This document shows, piece after piece, positions 1,794-38,347 of a stretch of DNA of 64,000 nt. Position numbers and translations under genes: made by a program. The DNA lies in the NCBI GenBank assembly GCA_050246315.1, contig JBFWWG010000010.1, forward strand, positions 64,001 through 128,000. The letters run 5' to 3'. Source of the DNA: Nitrospiraceae bacterium (GTDB taxonomy: Bacteria; Nitrospirota; Nitrospiria; Nitrospirales; Nitrospiraceae). Each line of letters opens with the position of its first letter. Position 1 is the stretch's first letter. The notes under the pieces are model-generated. The model searched no databases and had not been told where the DNA came from. It was given only the letters and a program-made list of their open reading frames with translations.

Positions 1794-3638
1794 ATGCTGC
1801 AAATCGAAGAAGTGTGGAAACAATTCGCCACTCGCGTCCTGCTCAAGGAAGCGTCGGCCCACCTGCGCCCAAACACCCGCGTGGGGTTGGTAGGACCGAA
1901 CGGGTGTGGCAAGACGACATTGTTGCGTATGATCATGGGCGAACAATCTCCCGACAAGGGGACGATCCGAAAGCGTTCGCGACTGACCATGGGATATTTG
2001 GCGCAGGAACTCGAACCCCTTCTCGGAAAGAGCGTGCTGGAAGCCACCCATCGGGACCTCTATCCGGAGCACGAAGCCAAACGCATCCTGATGGGGTTGG
2101 GGTTCACGGTCCACGACTTCCCGCGCGTAGTCGATACCCTGTCCGGCGGATACCGCATGCGCGTGGCGCTGGCGCATCTGCTCTTGTCCAATCCTGATGT
2201 CTTGCTATTGGATGAGCCGACCAACCATCTGGATAAGGGGACGCAGCGTTGGTTCGAAGAGTTTCTTACTGCCTCCAAGATGACGCTACTCATCGTCAGC
2301 CACGACACGAAGTTCCTGGATCAGGTCGCCACCCATATGTGGGAAATCCGACACCAGCAAATTCGGGAGTACCGCGGCAACTACTCGCAGTTCCTTGTCC
2401 TAAAGGCTGAACAGGACGCACAGTTAGAATCCGCCGCCGTCCGTCAAGAGAAGGAAATCGCCCGGGTACAGAAGTTTGTCGATCGCTTTCGTTATCAGGC
2501 CAACAAGGCCCGCCAGGTCCAGTCCCGCATCAAACAGTTGGAGAAGGTCAAGGTCATCGAACGGCAGCGCGATCCGCGGCGGGTTCGGTTTACCTTTCCC
2601 GAACCAAGCCCGAGCGGTCGGCACGTATTGGACTTGCGGGGCGCAGCCAAAGCCTATGGGCATAAGGTAGTGTACGAGTCGTTGGACTTCATCGTAGAGC
2701 GCGGGCAGCGGATTGCCTTGGTTGGAGAAAACGGTGCGGGGAAAAGTACGCTCCTCAAAATGTTGGCGGGCGTGGCACCGCTGGATAAGGGTGCGAGGAC
2801 GGTGGGGCACGGGGTGACGTTGCATTATTTTGCCCAGCATCAGGCTGAAACGCTCAACCCAGAACATACGATCTTGGATTCGCTTCACGAGGTGGCCAAG
2901 CAGGTGGAGACGAATTTCCTCAGGGGCATCGCCGGCGCTTTTCTGTTTTCAGGGCCAGACCAGAAGAAACCCATCAAGGCCTTGAGCGGGGGGGAACGAA
3001 ACCGTGTCGCCCTAGCTCGTATGCTGGTTGAGCCTGCAAACACCCTGCTCTTGGACGAACCGACCAACCATCTCGACCCCGCCTCGGTAGACGTGCTGAC
3101 GGACGCGCTTGTCGCCTTCCCCGGGACCCTCATCTTCATTTCGCACGATCCGACCTTCCTATCGCGGATCGCGAATCGCATGGTCGAAATCGACGATGGG
3201 CAGGCGAAGGACTACCTCGGCGACTACGAATACTATCTTTGGAAGCGCAGCCAAGAGCTGGAGGAAGCGGCGAAAGATCAAGCGGACACTCGTCGAGCGG
3301 TCGGCATCGCCGACAATGATCGTGGGAACGGCCCAGATCCAGGATCCGACTCTCCCAAGGGGAAAGCAACGGAACGACGCGAGTTGATCAAGGCGGAGGC
3401 CCGTCTGGAGAAACAAGTCGCGCGGGCAGAAGCCGCGGTGATCGAGTGCGAGGCCAAGCTCAAAGCCCGCGACGGAGAACTCGCCGACCCCCAGCTCTAC
3501 GAGGACTTTGACCGATGGAAGGGGATGCAGCGAGAGCACGCGGTGTGGAAGCACGATCTTGAACGGGCCACAGCGAAGTGGGAGGAACTGTCACAGGAAC
3601 TGGAACGTGTCCGTGGTTCGCTGGCGAGTCTCGGCTAA
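1794..3638 (+). CDS. ABC-F family ATP-binding protein
   Basis: Two ABC domains (GPNGCGKT, GENGAGKS; LSGG; LLDEPTNHLD twice), no TM segments, C-terminal coiled coil. Confidence 0.95.
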   Translation: MLQIEEVWKQFATRVLLKEASAHLRPNTRVGLVGPNGCGKTTLLRMIMGEQSPDKGTIRKRSRLTMGYLAQELEPLLGKSVLEATHRDLYPEHEAKRILMGLGFTVHDFPRVVDTLSGGYRMRVALAHLLLSNPDVLLLDEPTNHLDKGTQRWFEEFLTASKMTLLIVSHDTKFLDQVATHMWEIRHQQIREYRGNYSQFLVLKAEQDAQLESAAVRQEKEIARVQKFVDRFRYQANKARQVQSRIKQLEKVKVIERQRDPRRVRFTFPEPSPSGRHVLDLRGAAKAYGHKVVYESLDFIVERGQRIALVGENGAGKSTLLKMLAGVAPLDKGARTVGHGVTLHYFAQHQAETLNPEHTILDSLHEVAKQVETNFLRGIAGAFLFSGPDQKKPIKALSGGERNRVALARMLVEPANTLLLDEPTNHLDPASVDVLTDALVAFPGTLIFISHDPTFLSRIANRMVEIDDGQAKDYLGDYEYYLWKRSQELEEAAKDQADTRRAVGIADNDRGNGPDPGSDSPKGKATERRELIKAEARLEKQVARAEAAVIECEAKLKARDGELADPQLYEDFDRWKGMQREHAVWKHDLERATAKWEELSQELERVRGSLASLG

Positions 3639-4006
3639 TTTTGAATTCTTAGGGTTTCTTCCAGGTAATAGTACAGCCAGCGATTCTTGTCGACCGTCAC
3701 AACCTCGTCCCACACCACGCCGATCAAGAATCCTTTATCCCACGCCTTGACCCAAGCCACCGTCCCCGCGAGTTTCTCCTGCTGCTCCTGCCCCTGTTGA
3801 TCCAAGAACGCCAATACCACGATGACTTCGTCTTTGGCGGCCAGTCTGGCCTTGGTATGCAGCCCCGCGCCGATGCGGTTGACGTTATCCAGCACGGCCG
3901 TCACCGAGGCGCCGCCGCTCCTCGGCTCAAGCAGCGCAGAGCCCACGAGTGTCGCCCGGACAAAGCGACGACGATCATTGGCCTGTGCGGCTGTTGGTCG
4001 AGTCAT
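3635..4006 (-). CDS. PilZ domain protein
   Basis: RRRFVR (RxxxR) followed by NVNRIG (D/NxSxxG-like); GGAGG RBS before ATG 4006. Confidence 0.8.
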   Translation of the reverse strand: MTRPTAAQANDRRRFVRATLVGSALLEPRSGGASVTAVLDNVNRIGAGLHTKARLAAKDEVIVVLAFLDQQGQEQQEKLAGTVAWVKAWDKGFLIGVVWDEVVTVDKNRWLYYYLEETLRIQN

Positions 4007-4097
4007 CCGGCCCTCCTGGCTCTGAGTATAGCGAACGGGCAAGGATTGTCCATCACGCCGCGTGGCGGAACGGGCAGACGTGCGTTTCGTCTGTGCG

Positions 4098-5390
4098 CTA
4101 GTTTTTCTTCGGCGAGTAATATCGAACCCCTTTCAGCTCGGGAGGTAGATGACACTGTTCCCGTTGCGCAGCCGGGTCGTCGTGAACATACCGGTAACCT
4201 TCTCCATAGCCCAATTTCTTCACGAGCGGCGTCACTGCATTGCGCAGATGAACGGGCACCGGCAAGTTTCCATGGGCTCGGGCATCGGTCATGGCCTTCC
4301 CAATCCCGGCGTATGACGCATTGTCCTTGGGACAGGTTGCCAGGTAGGTCGTCCCTTGCGCGAGCGTAATCTGTGCCTCGGGCATCCCGATGAATTGCAC
4401 GGCCTGCGAGACCGCCATGGCGAGGAGCAGTGCCTGGGGTTCCGCGTTTCCGATATCCTCCGAGGCAAAAATCACCATCCGCCGGGCGATGAAGAGCGGG
4501 TCCTCTCCGCCTTCCAGCATGCGAGCCATCCAATAGAGCGCCCCATCCGCATCCGAGTCCCGCAAGCTCTTTATGAAGGCTGACACGAGGTTGTAATGTT
4601 CCTCGCCTGCACGGTCGTACCGGAGCGCTTTCTTCGAGAGCGCCACCGACATCGCCTGTTCATCGAGGACCAGTTCGCCGTCAGCTTGCCGGGGCATATG
4701 CTCCACCACGTGCTCCAAGGCCGTCAGGGCCGACCGAGCATCACCATTCCCGAACGCGATCAGGCGCCGGCGTGCCAAGGGAGTCATCGTCACCGACAAG
4801 TCGCCGAATCCCCGACTGGCATCCGTCAACGCCCGATCCAGAATCTGACCCAGAGCCTCATCGGTCAGAGCTTGCAGCATCACCACCAGTGAGCGCGAGA
4901 GCAGCGGCGCGATGACCTCAAAAGACGGATTCTCGGTCGTGGCCCCCAGGAGCACAATCGTGCCCTTCTCGACATGTGGGAGAAACGCATCCTGCTGTGC
5001 CCTGTTAAATCGATGGATTTCATCGACAAACAGGATGGTGCGCTGCCCGGAGAGGTGGCGACGCTGTTCTGCCGCCTTGACGATCGCCCGCAATTCGGCA
5101 ATTCCACTGGTAACCGCGGAGAAGGGGATAAATGCGGCCTTGGTGTGCTTGGCGATGAGTTGCGCTAGCGTGGTTTTCCCCGAGCCGGGCGGCCCCCATA
5201 AGATCACCGAGGACAGGGTATCCGCCTCGATCGCACGCCGCAACGGACGATCAGGCCTGATCAACTCCTCCTGCCCAAGAAACTCGGAGAAATCACGCGG
5301 CCGCATTCGCTCGGCCAGCGGCGCACGAGGCCCTTCCAAGCCGGGCTCGGCCCGATAGAGATCAGTTTGCGCGTCCCGTTGGACGGACAT
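4098..5390 (-). CDS. rarA: Replication-associated recombination protein A (MgsA/RarA AAA+ ATPase)
   Basis: PLAERMRP, GPPGSGKT, FVDEIHRFN, GATTENPSF, ASEDIGNA motifs. Confidence 0.95.
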   Translation of the reverse strand: MSVQRDAQTDLYRAEPGLEGPRAPLAERMRPRDFSEFLGQEELIRPDRPLRRAIEADTLSSVILWGPPGSGKTTLAQLIAKHTKAAFIPFSAVTSGIAELRAIVKAAEQRRHLSGQRTILFVDEIHRFNRAQQDAFLPHVEKGTIVLLGATTENPSFEVIAPLLSRSLVVMLQALTDEALGQILDRALTDASRGFGDLSVTMTPLARRRLIAFGNGDARSALTALEHVVEHMPRQADGELVLDEQAMSVALSKKALRYDRAGEEHYNLVSAFIKSLRDSDADGALYWMARMLEGGEDPLFIARRMVIFASEDIGNAEPQALLLAMAVSQAVQFIGMPEAQITLAQGTTYLATCPKDNASYAGIGKAMTDARAHGNLPVPVHLRNAVTPLVKKLGYGEGYRYVHDDPAAQREQCHLPPELKGVRYYSPKKN

Positions 5391-5542
5391 AGGCGAGTCG
5401 AGGTGGATTGGCCCCATTCTATACGGAACCGACAGCCCCCGCAATCAGCGGCCGACCCACCTGATACGTGCTTCATTGACCGATGAGGCGGGAAGATGAT
5501 AGAGGACAGCCCCTACGGACCTAGCAGCCTGAGGTACTGTCC

Positions 5543-6337
5543 ATGCCCTCTGCGACCGTGAACGGCATCAAACTCGCCTATTCCGACCAAGGAACGGGCC
5601 TCCCCCTGGTCTTCCTGCATGGGTTTCCCCTCAATCGGGACATGTGGACACCTCAAATACAGGGGCTCGGAGATCGGGCTCGTATCATCTCGGTTGATCT
5701 GCGGGGACACGGCGAGTCCGACGCCCCCCTCTGGCAGTACACGATGGAGCAGTTCGCCGACGACGTGGCAGGCCTGCTCGATCACCTCGGCCTGCTCCAG
5801 GTGGTGTTGGTTGGACTGTCGATGGGCGGCTACGTGGCGCTCACGTTCTCCGCCAACCATTCTCATCGGTTGAAGGCGCTCGTGTTGACGGATACGCGGG
5901 CTCAGGCCGATACGGAGAATGGAAGGGAGGGTCGTTTCCAGATGGCTCAAACTGCATATCGGAAGGGGCCGCCGGCCATTCGAGACATCATGGTTCCCAA
6001 ACTGTTGTGTCCGAAGACACTCCAATCCAATCGGGCGGTAGTTGAACAGGTGGAGGCAATGATCCTGAGGATGGAGCTCAGCGGTCTAGCCGGAGACCTG
6101 ATGGCCATGGCAGGACGTCCCGACTCCGTTCCACGCCTCCCGTCGATCCGCTGTCCCACCCTCGTCATCGTCGGAGAGCAGGACCAACCGACACCGGTCC
6201 CGGACGCGCGCCTCATGGCGGACCGTATTCCCGGCGCACGGCTGGAGATCATCCCGGACGCGGGGCACTTGCCCAATCTCGAACAACCAGAGCTGTTCAA
6301 TGACGCTCTGTGGCGATTCCATTCCTCACTCGTCTGA
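5543..6337 (+). CDS. Alpha/beta fold hydrolase
   Basis: HGF oxyanion motif, GLSMGG nucleophile elbow, GEQD, AGH. Confidence 0.92.
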   Translation: MPSATVNGIKLAYSDQGTGLPLVFLHGFPLNRDMWTPQIQGLGDRARIISVDLRGHGESDAPLWQYTMEQFADDVAGLLDHLGLLQVVLVGLSMGGYVALTFSANHSHRLKALVLTDTRAQADTENGREGRFQMAQTAYRKGPPAIRDIMVPKLLCPKTLQSNRAVVEQVEAMILRMELSGLAGDLMAMAGRPDSVPRLPSIRCPTLVIVGEQDQPTPVPDARLMADRIPGARLEIIPDAGHLPNLEQPELFNDALWRFHSSLV

Positions 6338-35407: not shown

Positions 35408-35422
35408 TGGCATGCAGCTTGC
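35408..35422 (+). promoter_or_regulatory. sigma54 (-24/-12) promoter
   Basis: TGGCATGCAGCTTGC with exact GG-N10-GC spacing. Confidence 0.7.
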
Positions 35423-35503
35423 GCCTCCGACGCCACTATTGGGAGATCGTATCGAAAAGGGGCGATTATGTTGCTGTTGACACTAATCACCCGAAAGGAT
35501 ACG

Positions 35504-36394
35504 ATGATTCAATATCCGGCAGTTAATGATCTGTACTCTCTGTCCGAGCACTTAGGCAAGGCTATTTGGCTTAACAATTGGCGGCAAGGCTTCATGGCTG
35601 CATTCACGGCATACTTTGATGCGAGCGGGCACCAGGAAGACCCTCAAATGCCGTTAGTTTCTGTAGCCGGTTTTATTGCTCCACCGGATGTCTGGAACGA
35701 CTTTGAAGTTAAGTGGAAGGACCGCTTAGCCAAAGATGGCTTAACAGTCTTTCACATGTCTGAATGCGCCAATTGTGAATACGACTTCCAACAGTGGCGA
35801 GCGAGAGAACCCGACCGCCAGAGACTACTTCGAGACCTGCTTGAAATAATTAAGCCGCTAAGTAGAAAGTTCGGCTGCACGGTCCCACTCAAGACATACA
35901 GAGAAAGGCTGGATCTAGAACTGGTAGAGCAATTCAAATTTAAGGCCTACGTTTTGGCCGGTAGAGCCTGTGCCGCCAAAGTCCGTCAATGGTGCGAGCG
36001 TGATGGGGCACCACCACTCTCTCGCATTCAATTTTTCTTTGAACGTGGCGATAACTGGCAGCCAGAACTAAGGGAGAGATTAATGGATGATGGTTTCGGA
36101 GAACCAATATTCAAGCCGAAACGTGACCTATACAGGAACGGAACCCTAGTAGAGCATGGGCTTATCCCGTTTCAAGCCGCAGATGTTCTCGCCTACATCA
36201 CATTTCTGGCACAGAAGTTTTTAATCCAAGGCAGAGATGATTGGGGCGATAAGGAAAGCATTCGATGGGTCTTGGAAGAACTCGAAGAACATAGTGTGCC
36301 TGGATCATTGAACAATTTCACGCCACAAAATCTAGATGGGATTAACTCACTGATGCGTGTGTGCAGTATTGATTTATTGGGTTGGAACGGCTAA
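35504..36394 (+). CDS. DUF3800-like (RNase H-fold) passenger protein
   Basis: AYFDASG, FHM, QAADVLAY; start either 35504 or 35594. Confidence 0.8.
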   Translation: MIQYPAVNDLYSLSEHLGKAIWLNNWRQGFMAAFTAYFDASGHQEDPQMPLVSVAGFIAPPDVWNDFEVKWKDRLAKDGLTVFHMSECANCEYDFQQWRAREPDRQRLLRDLLEIIKPLSRKFGCTVPLKTYRERLDLELVEQFKFKAYVLAGRACAAKVRQWCERDGAPPLSRIQFFFERGDNWQPELRERLMDDGFGEPIFKPKRDLYRNGTLVEHGLIPFQAADVLAYITFLAQKFLIQGRDDWGDKESIRWVLEELEEHSVPGSLNNFTPQNLDGINSLMRVCSIDLLGWNG

Positions 36395-36414
36395 GGCTTC
36401 GAGGATAAAGCTTT

Positions 36415-36549
36415 TTATTTTTTCCTGGCAGGTTGTTGCGAGGGAGCTAGAACACGCTTCACGGCCTTTTTGAATTTCTCAATGTCGGCGTGTTCTAGCT
36501 CTTTTCTGAGTTTGTCGTCGGCGTCTTTTGTAGCGCGGGTGATAGCCAC
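36415..36549 (-). CDS. 44-aa basic ORF downstream of the transposase
   Basis: GTG start, MAITRATKDADDKLRKELEHADIEKFKKAVKRVLAPSQQPARKK*; below the ORF-track cutoff. Confidence 0.55.
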   Translation of the reverse strand: MAITRATKDADDKLRKELEHADIEKFKKAVKRVLAPSQQPARKK

Positions 36550-36581
36550 CCAAGTATTTTAGCGATTCTACCCGAACGTGT

Positions 36582-37484
36582 CTACTTGCCGCTCGTCGTT
36601 AAAAGTTCCATGAAGGCATTCGGGTTCTTACGCATGTTGTGGCGATAGGAAAATTCATTGATATATAAAGGCAAATAATCTTTGGATACATGATGGAACG
36701 ACCCCATAATCCCACGCTTAAACAGGGACCAAAAGCTATCGAGATTGGCAGTATGGACACGCCCTCTGACGTATTCCCCTTTAAAATGGGACACCGATTC
36801 ATGTGGAATCCCTTGCCTCTTCAATCCACGATATCCGGAATAGTCGTCGGTCGCCACCAACGATACGTCCTCCGCTACAGTTTCACGGACAAAGCGTTGG
36901 AGGGTCGCTGCATCAGTCCGTTCAATGGCCTGAGCCACGACCATGCCTTTTCGGGCAATGGCGCCAATGACCGCCACCTTCCCCCATCCCCCAGATACTC
37001 CAAATCTCTTCGACCGATGCCGATTTTTGTCTTTGCCGCCGACATAGGTTTCATCCACTTCGACTTCCCCAGACAATGGCGAGACATCGCCCTTCATGGC
37101 CGAACGCCAACGATGGCACATATACCAAGTGGTGCGGTAATCGGAGCCAGAGTCTTCACCGAAGATAACGCGATGCAACTGCAAGGCGCTAACGCCCTTT
37201 TTCGCAGTGAGCATGAGATAGCCCACCTTAAACCATAGCTTTAAGGGGGTCTTAGTATCTTGAAAAATGGTGCGAGTCAGTATGGAGAAGCGATACCCGC
37301 TCTTCCCGCCACAGTCTATGTTCTTGCAGACCCAATGAAATGACTTTGATTTCAGTCGATAGATTTTCTCAAGTCTCTGACAGCGTGGACAGGTGACGCC
37401 ATTAGGCCATCTTGCTTCGACCAGAAAGGCTTTGCAGGCTTCTTCAGTGGTGAATTGCTTGTCAAAGGCGTCGAGTGTTTGCAT
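36582..37484 (-). CDS. IS1595 family (ISXO2-like) transposase
   Basis: Zn ribbon CPRC...CKNIDC, EVDETYVGG, TDD, HTANLDSFW, YINEFSYRHN. Confidence 0.95.
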   Translation of the reverse strand: MQTLDAFDKQFTTEEACKAFLVEARWPNGVTCPRCQRLEKIYRLKSKSFHWVCKNIDCGGKSGYRFSILTRTIFQDTKTPLKLWFKVGYLMLTAKKGVSALQLHRVIFGEDSGSDYRTTWYMCHRWRSAMKGDVSPLSGEVEVDETYVGGKDKNRHRSKRFGVSGGWGKVAVIGAIARKGMVVAQAIERTDAATLQRFVRETVAEDVSLVATDDYSGYRGLKRQGIPHESVSHFKGEYVRGRVHTANLDSFWSLFKRGIMGSFHHVSKDYLPLYINEFSYRHNMRKNPNAFMELLTTSGK

Positions 37485-37572
37485 GGTCTGTTCTCCTCTA
37501 CGAATAGGAGCAACATACCAAAATCAGTAGAAGGTGTCAATACCAACATAATCACCCGAAAAGGATACGCCG

Positions 37573-37656
37573 ATGATGCTCATGACCTACACAGTGCCGA
37601 TGACCGCCATGTTAATCGGACTCGCGACCTACTGGGTCGTCACCAAACTCTGGTAA
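37573..37656 (+). CDS. 27-aa hydrophobic small protein
   Basis: AAGGA RBS, MMLMTYTVPMTAMLIGLATYWVVTKLW*. Confidence 0.45.
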   Translation: MMLMTYTVPMTAMLIGLATYWVVTKLW

Positions 37657-37921
37657 CCGCGTCCATGATATGGGAGGCGACTCCACGCACACCAAGTTGG
37701 TGGTGGATCTCAACTCCTTTTGGTGGATTTCAACCATGCGACGAAACATGGGGGCCAGCGCGCTTTATAACTCCAATGGATTTCAAGCACGTCGCGCTGA
37801 ACTGGACTCGGCACTGATGTTGCTCAAGGAACTGGTCTTGAAGCCTCGGCGCAGACGAGCCGAAGACAACAACGCTCGAGGGCAGGATGCCATTGATGTC
37901 ACTCACACAAGGAGGGGAACC

Positions 37922-38347
37922 ATGTCAGATGCATTGTTCGGAGCGTCAACAGGAAATGGTCGCGTATTGATCGTCGACGATGAGCCGGACATCAGAAAGG
38001 TCGTCCGGATGACCTTGCAGAAAGCCGGCTACGACGTGCTCGAAGCCGAGAACGGCGAGAAGGCCATCGAGGTCATCAACACGGGCGAGAACCGTCTCAT
38101 GCTCGATGTCCTGGTCTGCGACATCCGCATGCCGAAGATCAACGGCGTGGAGGCCATCGCCTATTTCCGGAAGAACTATACCCGCGTCCCGATCATCGTC
38201 CTGACCGGGTTCCCGGACACCGAGATGGCCGCGACCTTCCTACGCGACGGCGGGATCGTGGACTACCTCGTGAAACCGGTAGAAGGCGAAAAACTCAAAG
38301 CCGCCGTGGCGCGTGCGATGGAGCAACGCGAAGTCGCTTCACTGTAA
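37922..38347 (+). CDS. Single-domain response regulator
   Basis: LIVDDE, CDIRMP, LTG, KP; AGGAGG RBS. Confidence 0.93.
   Translation: MSDALFGASTGNGRVLIVDDEPDIRKVVRMTLQKAGYDVLEAENGEKAIEVINTGENRLMLDVLVCDIRMPKINGVEAIAYFRKNYTRVPIIVLTGFPDTEMAATFLRDGGIVDYLVKPVEGEKLKAAVARAMEQREVASL

Follow-up and report, generated by a model that had tools for sequence, protein, structure and literature searches.

This study concerns an insertion sequence (IS) in a 64,000-nucleotide stretch of DNA from a Nitrospiraceae bacterium (assembly GCA_050246315.1, contig JBFWWG010000010.1, positions 64,001 to 128,000), the whole of which is referred to as the window and in which coordinates are given. The element belongs to the IS1595 family and extends from 35461 to 37556 (2096 bp). 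Its terminal inverted repeats (TIRs), of 23 bp on the left or cargo side (35461-35483, + strand) and 24 bp on the right or transposase side (37533-37556, - strand), both begin with GG; they have 3 mismatches, the left TIR being equal to the reverse complement of the right one at 20 of 23 positions. A direct 8-bp target site duplication (TSD), CGAAAAGG, stands at 35453-35460 and 37557-37564. The element contains a cargo (passenger) gene encoding 296 aa (35504-36394, + strand) and a transposase gene encoding 300 aa (36582-37484, - strand). Between the left TIR and the cargo gene lie 20 nucleotides (35484-35503, + strand) that resemble the junction at the opposite end of the element, and it is the nature and origin of this 20-mer that we address here.

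The transposase matches the DDE_Tnp_IS1595 domain over its entire length (PF12762, E = 6.3e-37, profile positions 1-153 of 153) and has a zinc ribbon at its N-terminus (PF12760, E = 5.8e-12). The DDE domain, the N-terminal zinc ribbon, the 8-bp TSD and the GG start of the TIRs place the element in the IS1595 family. These features fit the family description in PMC8101967, which gives the zinc ribbon as missing in the IS1016 group only.

The junction-like 20-mer

The 20-mer is composed of TAATCACC, CGAAAGG and ATACG. The right junction (37549-37569) reads TAATCACC, CGAAAAGG and ATACG, which are the last 8 bp of the right TIR, the TSD and the first 5 bp of the right flank, and the internal copy differs from it only by one A fewer in the A-run. 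With 20 of 21 positions equal, there are no substitutions, and TAATCACC carries the A that is specific to the tip of the right TIR. Both stretches are closely followed by ATGAT, and the alignment extends through this motif if an extra 3-nt gap is accepted. This confirmed the observation of an earlier note, made from the letters alone, that a near-copy of the opposite junction lies immediately inside the left TIR.

Chance was ruled out as the origin of the match by several comparisons. When both strands of the window were scanned with the 29-nt junction, the 20-mer scored 36, against 24 for the next-best site. Double shuffles never reached 36 (0 of 5000, maximum 33); one of 2000 single shuffles tied this score, for which we have no explanation, since a Gumbel fit to the shuffles puts such a score at a few per million per trial. 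None of 5000 host 13-mers placed behind the tip scored as high as the true flank. The best internal matches of 31 other junctions, taken from 15 related complete elements, required 5-8 edits, compared with one in the window element.

With regard to the assembly, 20 of 24 listed public runs, from six studies, contain at least 0.91 of the words of the stretch, and contigs of four runs (X1, which may be the source sample, X17, X18 and X20) were compared with it. The left junction together with the 20-mer is crossed by X17 and X20 contigs with 0 differences, the right junction is crossed by contigs of X17, X18 and X20, and a single X1 contig spans the whole region. Since contigs of independent runs reproduce the 20-mer and cross both junctions, a misassembly, which the earlier note had wished to see checked, can be rejected.

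The contigs of X17, X18 and X20 also contain an empty allele in which 35452 is joined to 37557; 2104 bases (2096 + 8) are skipped and 8 letters are common. Its depth in these runs is 9-26, against 3-9 over most of the element. Empty sites were likewise found in the sister genomes G001, G002 and G003, which have neither the element nor the second copy of the TSD, the two flank matches in G002 overlapping by 8 bp. As the site is empty both in sister genomes and within the same populations, the insertion is recent. The empty sites of G001-G003 further indicate that the host target sequence is ancestral and that the 20-mer is part of the mobile unit. Most likely, the 20 bp were already in the element when it arrived.

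A different origin would be that the 20 bp were written at the locus during or after insertion, with the right junction as the template for repair synthesis, template switching or gene conversion, and replaced the original leader. The absence of substitutions in 20 of 21 positions, the inclusion of the right-TIR tip variant, the ancestral host sequence in the empty sites of three sister genomes and the youth of an insertion whose empty and occupied alleles share flanks would all fit such copying. We nevertheless consider it rather unlikely. It would require a copy of very young age to have acquired two indels, the missing CCG included, and no occupied allele with a different inner sequence was present among the contigs of the four runs, although contigs miss rare variants. 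The cargo protein cluster has a single member, no relative above 61% having been found among 5.8 billion proteins. We also know of no step in DDE transposition by which flank is copied into the opposite end. A module-only allele (31 bp plus TSD) did not appear among the contig joints listed, which is no proof of its absence since contigs drop rare variants.

Target sites and related elements

The element is present as a single copy in its own genome, and a second copy was found neither there nor in 61 relatives, genome contigs, metagenome contigs or five related genomes. The best non-self match is 74% identical at the nucleotide level and covers only the transposase half (element positions ~980-2096). 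A search with a degenerate TIR pattern yielded 10 stretches from genome collections and 31 from metagenomes, and the five genomes with related elements contain one close copy each. None of the conclusions draws on the unpublished genome G009.

The target of the window element is the palindrome gtatCGAAAAGGatac. L031, whose transposase is 78% identical in amino acids to that of the window, lies at an unrelated locus in the target gtatCTAAAGAGatac, and L033, again at an unrelated locus, has ttatCCAAAGAG on its transposase-side flank, with ataac beside the TSD when the junction is read outward. These three insertions give the target consensus (G/T)TAT·C-N-AAA-R-R-G·ATA(C/A), in which the dots mark the edges of the TSD. 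The edge tat·C occurs in 5 of 25 tabulated ends, all 5 of which belong to the window element, L031 and L033 (0 of 20 others). Because C, AAA, G and ATAC are also present at the unrelated loci of L031 and L033, these shared bases can be attributed to the target consensus. The match between the 20-mer and the host ends one base past this consensus and, as the lineage inserts into one narrow palindromic target, any right junction of the element would read nearly alike. The claim that the copy includes host flank must be qualified accordingly: the bases do match the flank, but they are mostly target consensus (C..AAA..G ATAC) and only about three positions are site-specific. In the empty site, the host part of the junction (37557-37569) is the ribosome-binding region of a 27-aa open reading frame (ORF), and the sister genomes read CGGAAAGGATACGCCGATGATG or a close variant.

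We tentatively favour the reading that the 20-mer is an older right junction of the consensus kind, which the element carries as a scar of cargo capture. This reading is preferred because the match is limited to the consensus, because the cargo gene has a native start codon at the end of the 20-mer, because cargo and transposase have separate histories and because the inner sequence of a related element in G307 is fixed. The confinement of the match to the consensus part of the target also speaks against copying from the present flank.

The relation between inner sequences and flanks was examined in 16 elements, by scoring the cargo-side region from +24 to +85 against the tip followed by 13 flank bases of the same element and against the flanks of the other 15. 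The own flank ranked first in 4 of 16 elements (window, L042, L089 and L102), compared with 1 of 16 in the mirror control, and the own junction ranked 6th or lower in 10 of 16. The number of host 13-mers, out of 5000, that were as good as the own flank was 0 for the window, 0 for L089, 68 for L042 and 855 for L102. G307 contains two copies of a related IS, identical to each other down to the inner sequence but with unrelated flanks; their best matches are at 7-8 edits and their TSDs are not intact. As these copies keep their inner sequence beside unrelated flanks and have no copy of their junctions, neither copying nor guiding can be obligatory. The earlier note had offered guided target choice, copying of flank and a scar of cargo capture as explanations; the scar is the one that we prefer, copying retains the lower probability given above, and an obligatory form of copying or guiding is contradicted by the G307 copies. 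The latter (L093 and L101) lie ~60 kb apart on opposite strands with TSDs that do not match, and inversion by recombination between them would explain the mismatch.

Several observations weigh against the scar reading. Weaker forms of the feature recur in two relatives. At +49, near the same end as in the window, L089 has an 11-nt exact copy of its own tip and TSD (CGCC+CTCTTCT), and L042 has, also at this end, a weaker copy of its own junction (CGCC+TTTG, a 5-nt gap and GGGG). Such matches to the present junctions are what copying of the present flank is expected to give, unless those targets are consensus sequences as well, and the copies in the window, L089 and L042 are all 1 to 5 nt shorter than their junctions, as slippage would give. 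The window copy is perfect apart from one indel and includes the right-tip A although the TIRs differ at 3 of 23 positions, so that it looks recent. Its internal target has 7 bp instead of 8, and agreement extends to the positions peculiar to this site (N, one R and the G that follows ATAC), for which the chance is estimated at ~1 in 32. The consensus itself is built on no more than three insertions. Among transposase relatives that are closer, G056 has the target CCAATTAG and L032 has GGAATTCT, both different from the consensus, and the order of the window, L032, the L024 and G056 pair and the L031 and L033 pair is not settled in the transposase tree. Finally, there is no simple transposition step that would place the last 8 bp of the other end directly after TIR positions 1-23.

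Some features of the L089 locus (in G420) stand apart from its inner match. The element has no left TSD, and the homologous flanks in G373 (L104) are ~326 nt apart; no empty site for L089 was found at this variable locus, which also holds a repeated segment of ~76 nt. The missing left TSD looks like the result of an IS-adjacent deletion.

The relation between inner sequence and target could also be functional, the inner sequence being a mimic of either the target or the product junction that the transposase, or a step of nucleic-acid pairing, would use to bias target choice or for self-regulation. The element would then look for sites similar to the sequence inside it. Inner sequence and target do co-vary by lineage: GATAC in the window goes with GTATC...GATAC, and TTTG/GGGG in L042 goes with ccccTTTGTCAAagggg. 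In L061, the inner GAAGGGGG pairs with the left flank ccccTTTC (fold z = -4.70), and in L031 the right-flank motif TATTCCT recurs four times within the element. Target use is not simply in line with the transposase tree, and imperfect matches are what a guide would give. A mimic nevertheless seems improbable to us. The element has an ordinary IS1595 DDE transposase and an 8-bp TSD, and a palindromic target is accounted for by a protein complex with two-fold symmetry and not by a guide acting on one side. The genome contains two perfect copies of the 12-mer (C1:384776 and C7:106377), both of which are unoccupied, while the occupied site has an extra A. The G307 insertion sites are unlike the inner sequence of that element, and 10 of 16 elements have no own-flank signal. 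Quite improbable, too, is the idea that an IS1595/Merlin-type DDE transposon carries a DNA or RNA image of its product junction that aids in choosing or holding the target. Specificity would then lie in part in the DNA of the element and not in the transposase alone, and lineages that differ in their inner sequences would use different palindromic targets.

Two further observations concern the flanks of relatives. The transposase-side flank of L031 (element 3501-6055) has an inverted pair, TATTCCTA...TCAGGAATA, and four matches of 9-11 nt to this pair lie inside the element (positions 52, 164, 1760 and 2517 in the orientation of that comparison), with ~0.3 expected by our estimate. The distant IS1595 elements L066 and L067, from different genomes, have nearly the same left flank (atccacagaagatgggga...) and different TSDs; a conserved host element or a hot spot used by both may account for the common flank.

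Start signals and history of the cargo gene

Gene callers place the cargo start at ATG 35468 inside the left TIR (308 aa). From this codon the reading frame runs through the 20-mer into the cargo gene, the database protein P0001 (308 aa) starts there and, once the element has inserted, the left copy of the TSD stands 7 bp ahead of it and resembles a ribosome-binding site. The N-terminal extension of the cargo protein (YSL.EHL..W) is kept in the homologues of G373 and G235 and in P0002-P0014, and P0008, P0011 and P0012 likewise begin with MI. To judge from these alignments, ATG 35504 is the native cargo start. If so, CGAAAGGATACG is the predicted ribosome-binding site of the cargo gene, and the trailing ATGAT was not copied. 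In five elements the cargo start lies 42-46 bp from the tip, as determined by eye.

Since both stretches lie 4-7 nt ahead of a start codon, their likeness might be convergence only, in which an inverted copy of the tip, forming a hairpin with the TIR, came to stand beside an ordinary ribosome-binding site and the host target, being a ribosome-binding site too, resembles it without any common history. The complement of the tip does follow the TIR directly at some other ends: it reaches 6 of 8 positions in L061 and at the transposase-side end of L028, and G056 has TTGCGCC (by eye). For the family as a whole, this level (6 of 8) is attained at 3 of 41 ends, where 2624 control windows predict ~1; there is no enrichment, and an inverted tip as a family-wide feature was rejected. 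In addition, the identity continues for 12 nt past the tip in exact register, which no host 13-mer equalled (0 of 5000). Convergence is very unlikely in our estimation.

The 20-mer supplies most of a -10-like box, TACGAT (35500-35505). Together with TTGACA at 35477-35482 inside the left TIR, it forms the promoter-like pair facing the passenger gene that the earlier note had pointed out (TTGACA-N17-TACGAT, 35477-35505), and a promoter scan indeed lists it as a predicted site, one of 5 in 2.6 kb compared with 2.8 +/- 1.8 in shuffles. A second pair, TTGACA-17-TATGTT (37512-37540, - strand), is directed toward the transposase gene, with its -35 box within the right TIR, and ends of relatives have the same layout. 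Relatives have, at either end, a TAnnAT box 17 bp downstream of the TTGACA in their TIR. A box like that of the window is found at the same offset in L030 (9 of 12 positions; 2 of 166 control offsets as good) and L028 (8 of 12; 1 of 166). These similar boxes count against copying of the flank, as does the luck or selection that it would need for a ribosome-binding site at the right spacing together with a TAnnAT box 17 bp after TTGACA. A transcript from the TACGAT promoter would begin past ATG 35504, so that the two signals could not serve one mRNA.

The proposed fold-back of the 20-mer on the left flank was recovered as the RNA structure of lowest predicted energy (-24.7 kcal/mol, z = -4.17; 1 of 200 shuffles as good). 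It follows from the palindromic nature of the target, and its pairing is confined to the tips and to the arms of the palindrome. Fold z-values in relatives were -4.70 for L061 and -1.39 to +0.97 for four others, and a search of Rfam gave a single sub-threshold chance match. Hairpin-templated (quasi-palindrome) copying from the left junction was rejected as an origin of the 20-mer, because the TSD part of the latter repeats the left TSD in direct orientation instead of complementing it.

The cargo protein is 62% identical in amino acids to a paralogue on contig C19 of the same genome and 50-51% identical to the products of the G373 and G235 genes. The latter belong to IS1595 elements whose TIR is different and whose transposases are only 34-36% identical to that of the window. 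Conversely, the G056 cargo is only 31% identical, though the G056 transposase is 82% identical. Homology of relatives with the window begins only at ~36440. As the identities of cargo and transposase disagree and homology begins at this point, cargo modules appear to have been exchanged or captured apart from the core. The outer boundary of the cargo module is the inner TIR edge, exactly where the 20-mer lies, and 8 bp there equal the tip of the opposite end. No TIR remnant was visible in the element alignment at the inner boundary (~36395-36460). The inner edge of the conserved core, according to an alignment of 8 elements, is marked by a small ORF 3' of the transposase gene (36415-36549, - strand), which encodes a lysine-rich 44-aa product that is kept in 7 of 7 aligned relatives and belongs to no family. 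L067 has a similar small ORF beside its cargo start (by eye).

No Pfam or PADLOC family was found for the cargo protein. Its predicted structure (pLDDT 87.7) gave only weak Foldseek matches in the PDB, to RNase HII/HIII (best E = 3e-3, TM 0.36-0.46), and the modelled fold may weakly resemble RNase H. Invariant residues of the cargo family include D39, S41, G42, H84, E180 and D227. This family, which has no name, is found repeatedly within IS1595 elements, whose TIRs are of at least two types (L066, L067, L072, L061 and L030). The C19 paralogue (in G000; L002 1492-2277), which is chromosomal, has no N-terminal extension and no transposase in the surrounding 3.6 kb; it is followed by a 258-aa ORF without a family, and the 23 bases before its start equal the TIR at 14 positions (by eye).

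A scar of cargo capture, which we judge from the sequence to be the likeliest origin of the 20-mer, could have arisen as follows. An end of the IS would once have inserted into a consensus target directly upstream of the cargo gene. The joint would have been kept as the gene joined the element and would now act as the predicted ribosome-binding site of the cargo, the 20-mer also giving a -10-like box at a spacing of 17 bp from the TTGACA in the TIR. An internal deletion or a repair event would be needed to bring TIR position 23 next to the final 8 bp of an end of the opposite type. Other routes, namely an IS-circle junction, a nested insertion in the right TIR tip, a tandem dimer and unequal exchange of tips, were worked through on paper, and none of them yields TIR 1-23, tip 8, TSD and flank.

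Relation to known systems and significance

Some groups of the IS1595 family are reported to carry passenger genes (ISfinder; Siguier et al. 2009). The window element shares with the family its transposase with zinc ribbon and DDE_Tnp_IS1595 domain, its 8-bp TSD, its GG TIRs and the placement of the cargo between one TIR and the transposase gene, and it differs in the junction-like 20-mer inside the cargo-side TIR and in the long palindromic target consensus. A literature search, outside of which the founding paper of the family fell, yielded neither a paper on target preference in IS1595 or on internal copies of junctions nor a description of such a 20-mer or of a long palindromic consensus in this family.

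Among DDE elements, the hot spots of IS10/Tn10 provide an example of a symmetric target consensus. As in that system, the palindromic target of the window is centred on the duplicated bases, as expected of a two-fold symmetric complex. In contrast to IS10/Tn10, the window consensus, drawn from three insertions only, reaches 4 bp past each side of the TSD, and half of the target stands beside a copy of the element's own tip. The predicted fold-back recalls the fold-back inhibition that Davis, Simons and Kleckner are said to have described in IS10 in 1985, and which reportedly protects IS10 and other IS elements against activation by outside promoters. Here too, the terminal bases of a read-through transcript and the left flank are predicted to pair around a start codon. 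Unlike in IS10, the gene that would be masked is the cargo gene, not the transposase gene, and the pairing involves partly host flank and has no covariation support.

In guide-dependent IS, target choice relies on subterminal guides (IS200/IS605) or on a bridge RNA (IS110); these elements have HUH or DEDD enzymes and no 8-bp TSD. The window element is similar to them in that an internal sequence matches the target, but it differs in its DDE enzyme, in its TSD and in an internal copy that includes its own tip. In its DDE enzyme and 8-bp TSD, it departs from the guide-directed class, which is characterized by an HUH or DEDD enzyme and the lack of a staggered-cut TSD. The filler DNA of internally deleted P, Ac or Mu elements, which are eukaryotic cut-and-paste elements, arises from interrupted gap repair, and we know of no bacterial IS with filler of this kind. 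The 20-mer resembles such filler, which is made up of short copies of adjacent sequence, frequently that of the opposite end, and shows small deletions where it is joined; repair of this type is conjectural for the window element.

A long palindromic, Shine-Dalgarno-like target means that the elements land between promoters and start codons. In the window, the element separates a putative promoter motif of the sigma-54 type (TGGCAT-N5-TTGC, 35408-35422, + strand, outside the element and ~40 bp upstream of the insertion) from the 27-aa ORF (37573-37656) and a response-regulator gene (37670-38347). The motif is also present in the empty sites of G001, G002 and G003, and the cargo gene has the same direction as this promoter-like motif. 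The arrangement suggests that the insertion likely has a polar effect on the host operon and that the cargo is likely expressed by read-through.

If the inner sequence were a mimic, DNA would encode part of the target choice in a family that is related to the eukaryotic Merlin transposons. If it were a fresh copy, DDE insertion or repair would be able to write flank into an element, which would constitute a new route of sequence capture. Should the 20-mer be a scar, as we favour, IS1595 elements would pick up cargo through an end inserted in the ribosome-binding site of the captured gene, which would explain cargo starts at 42-46 bp.

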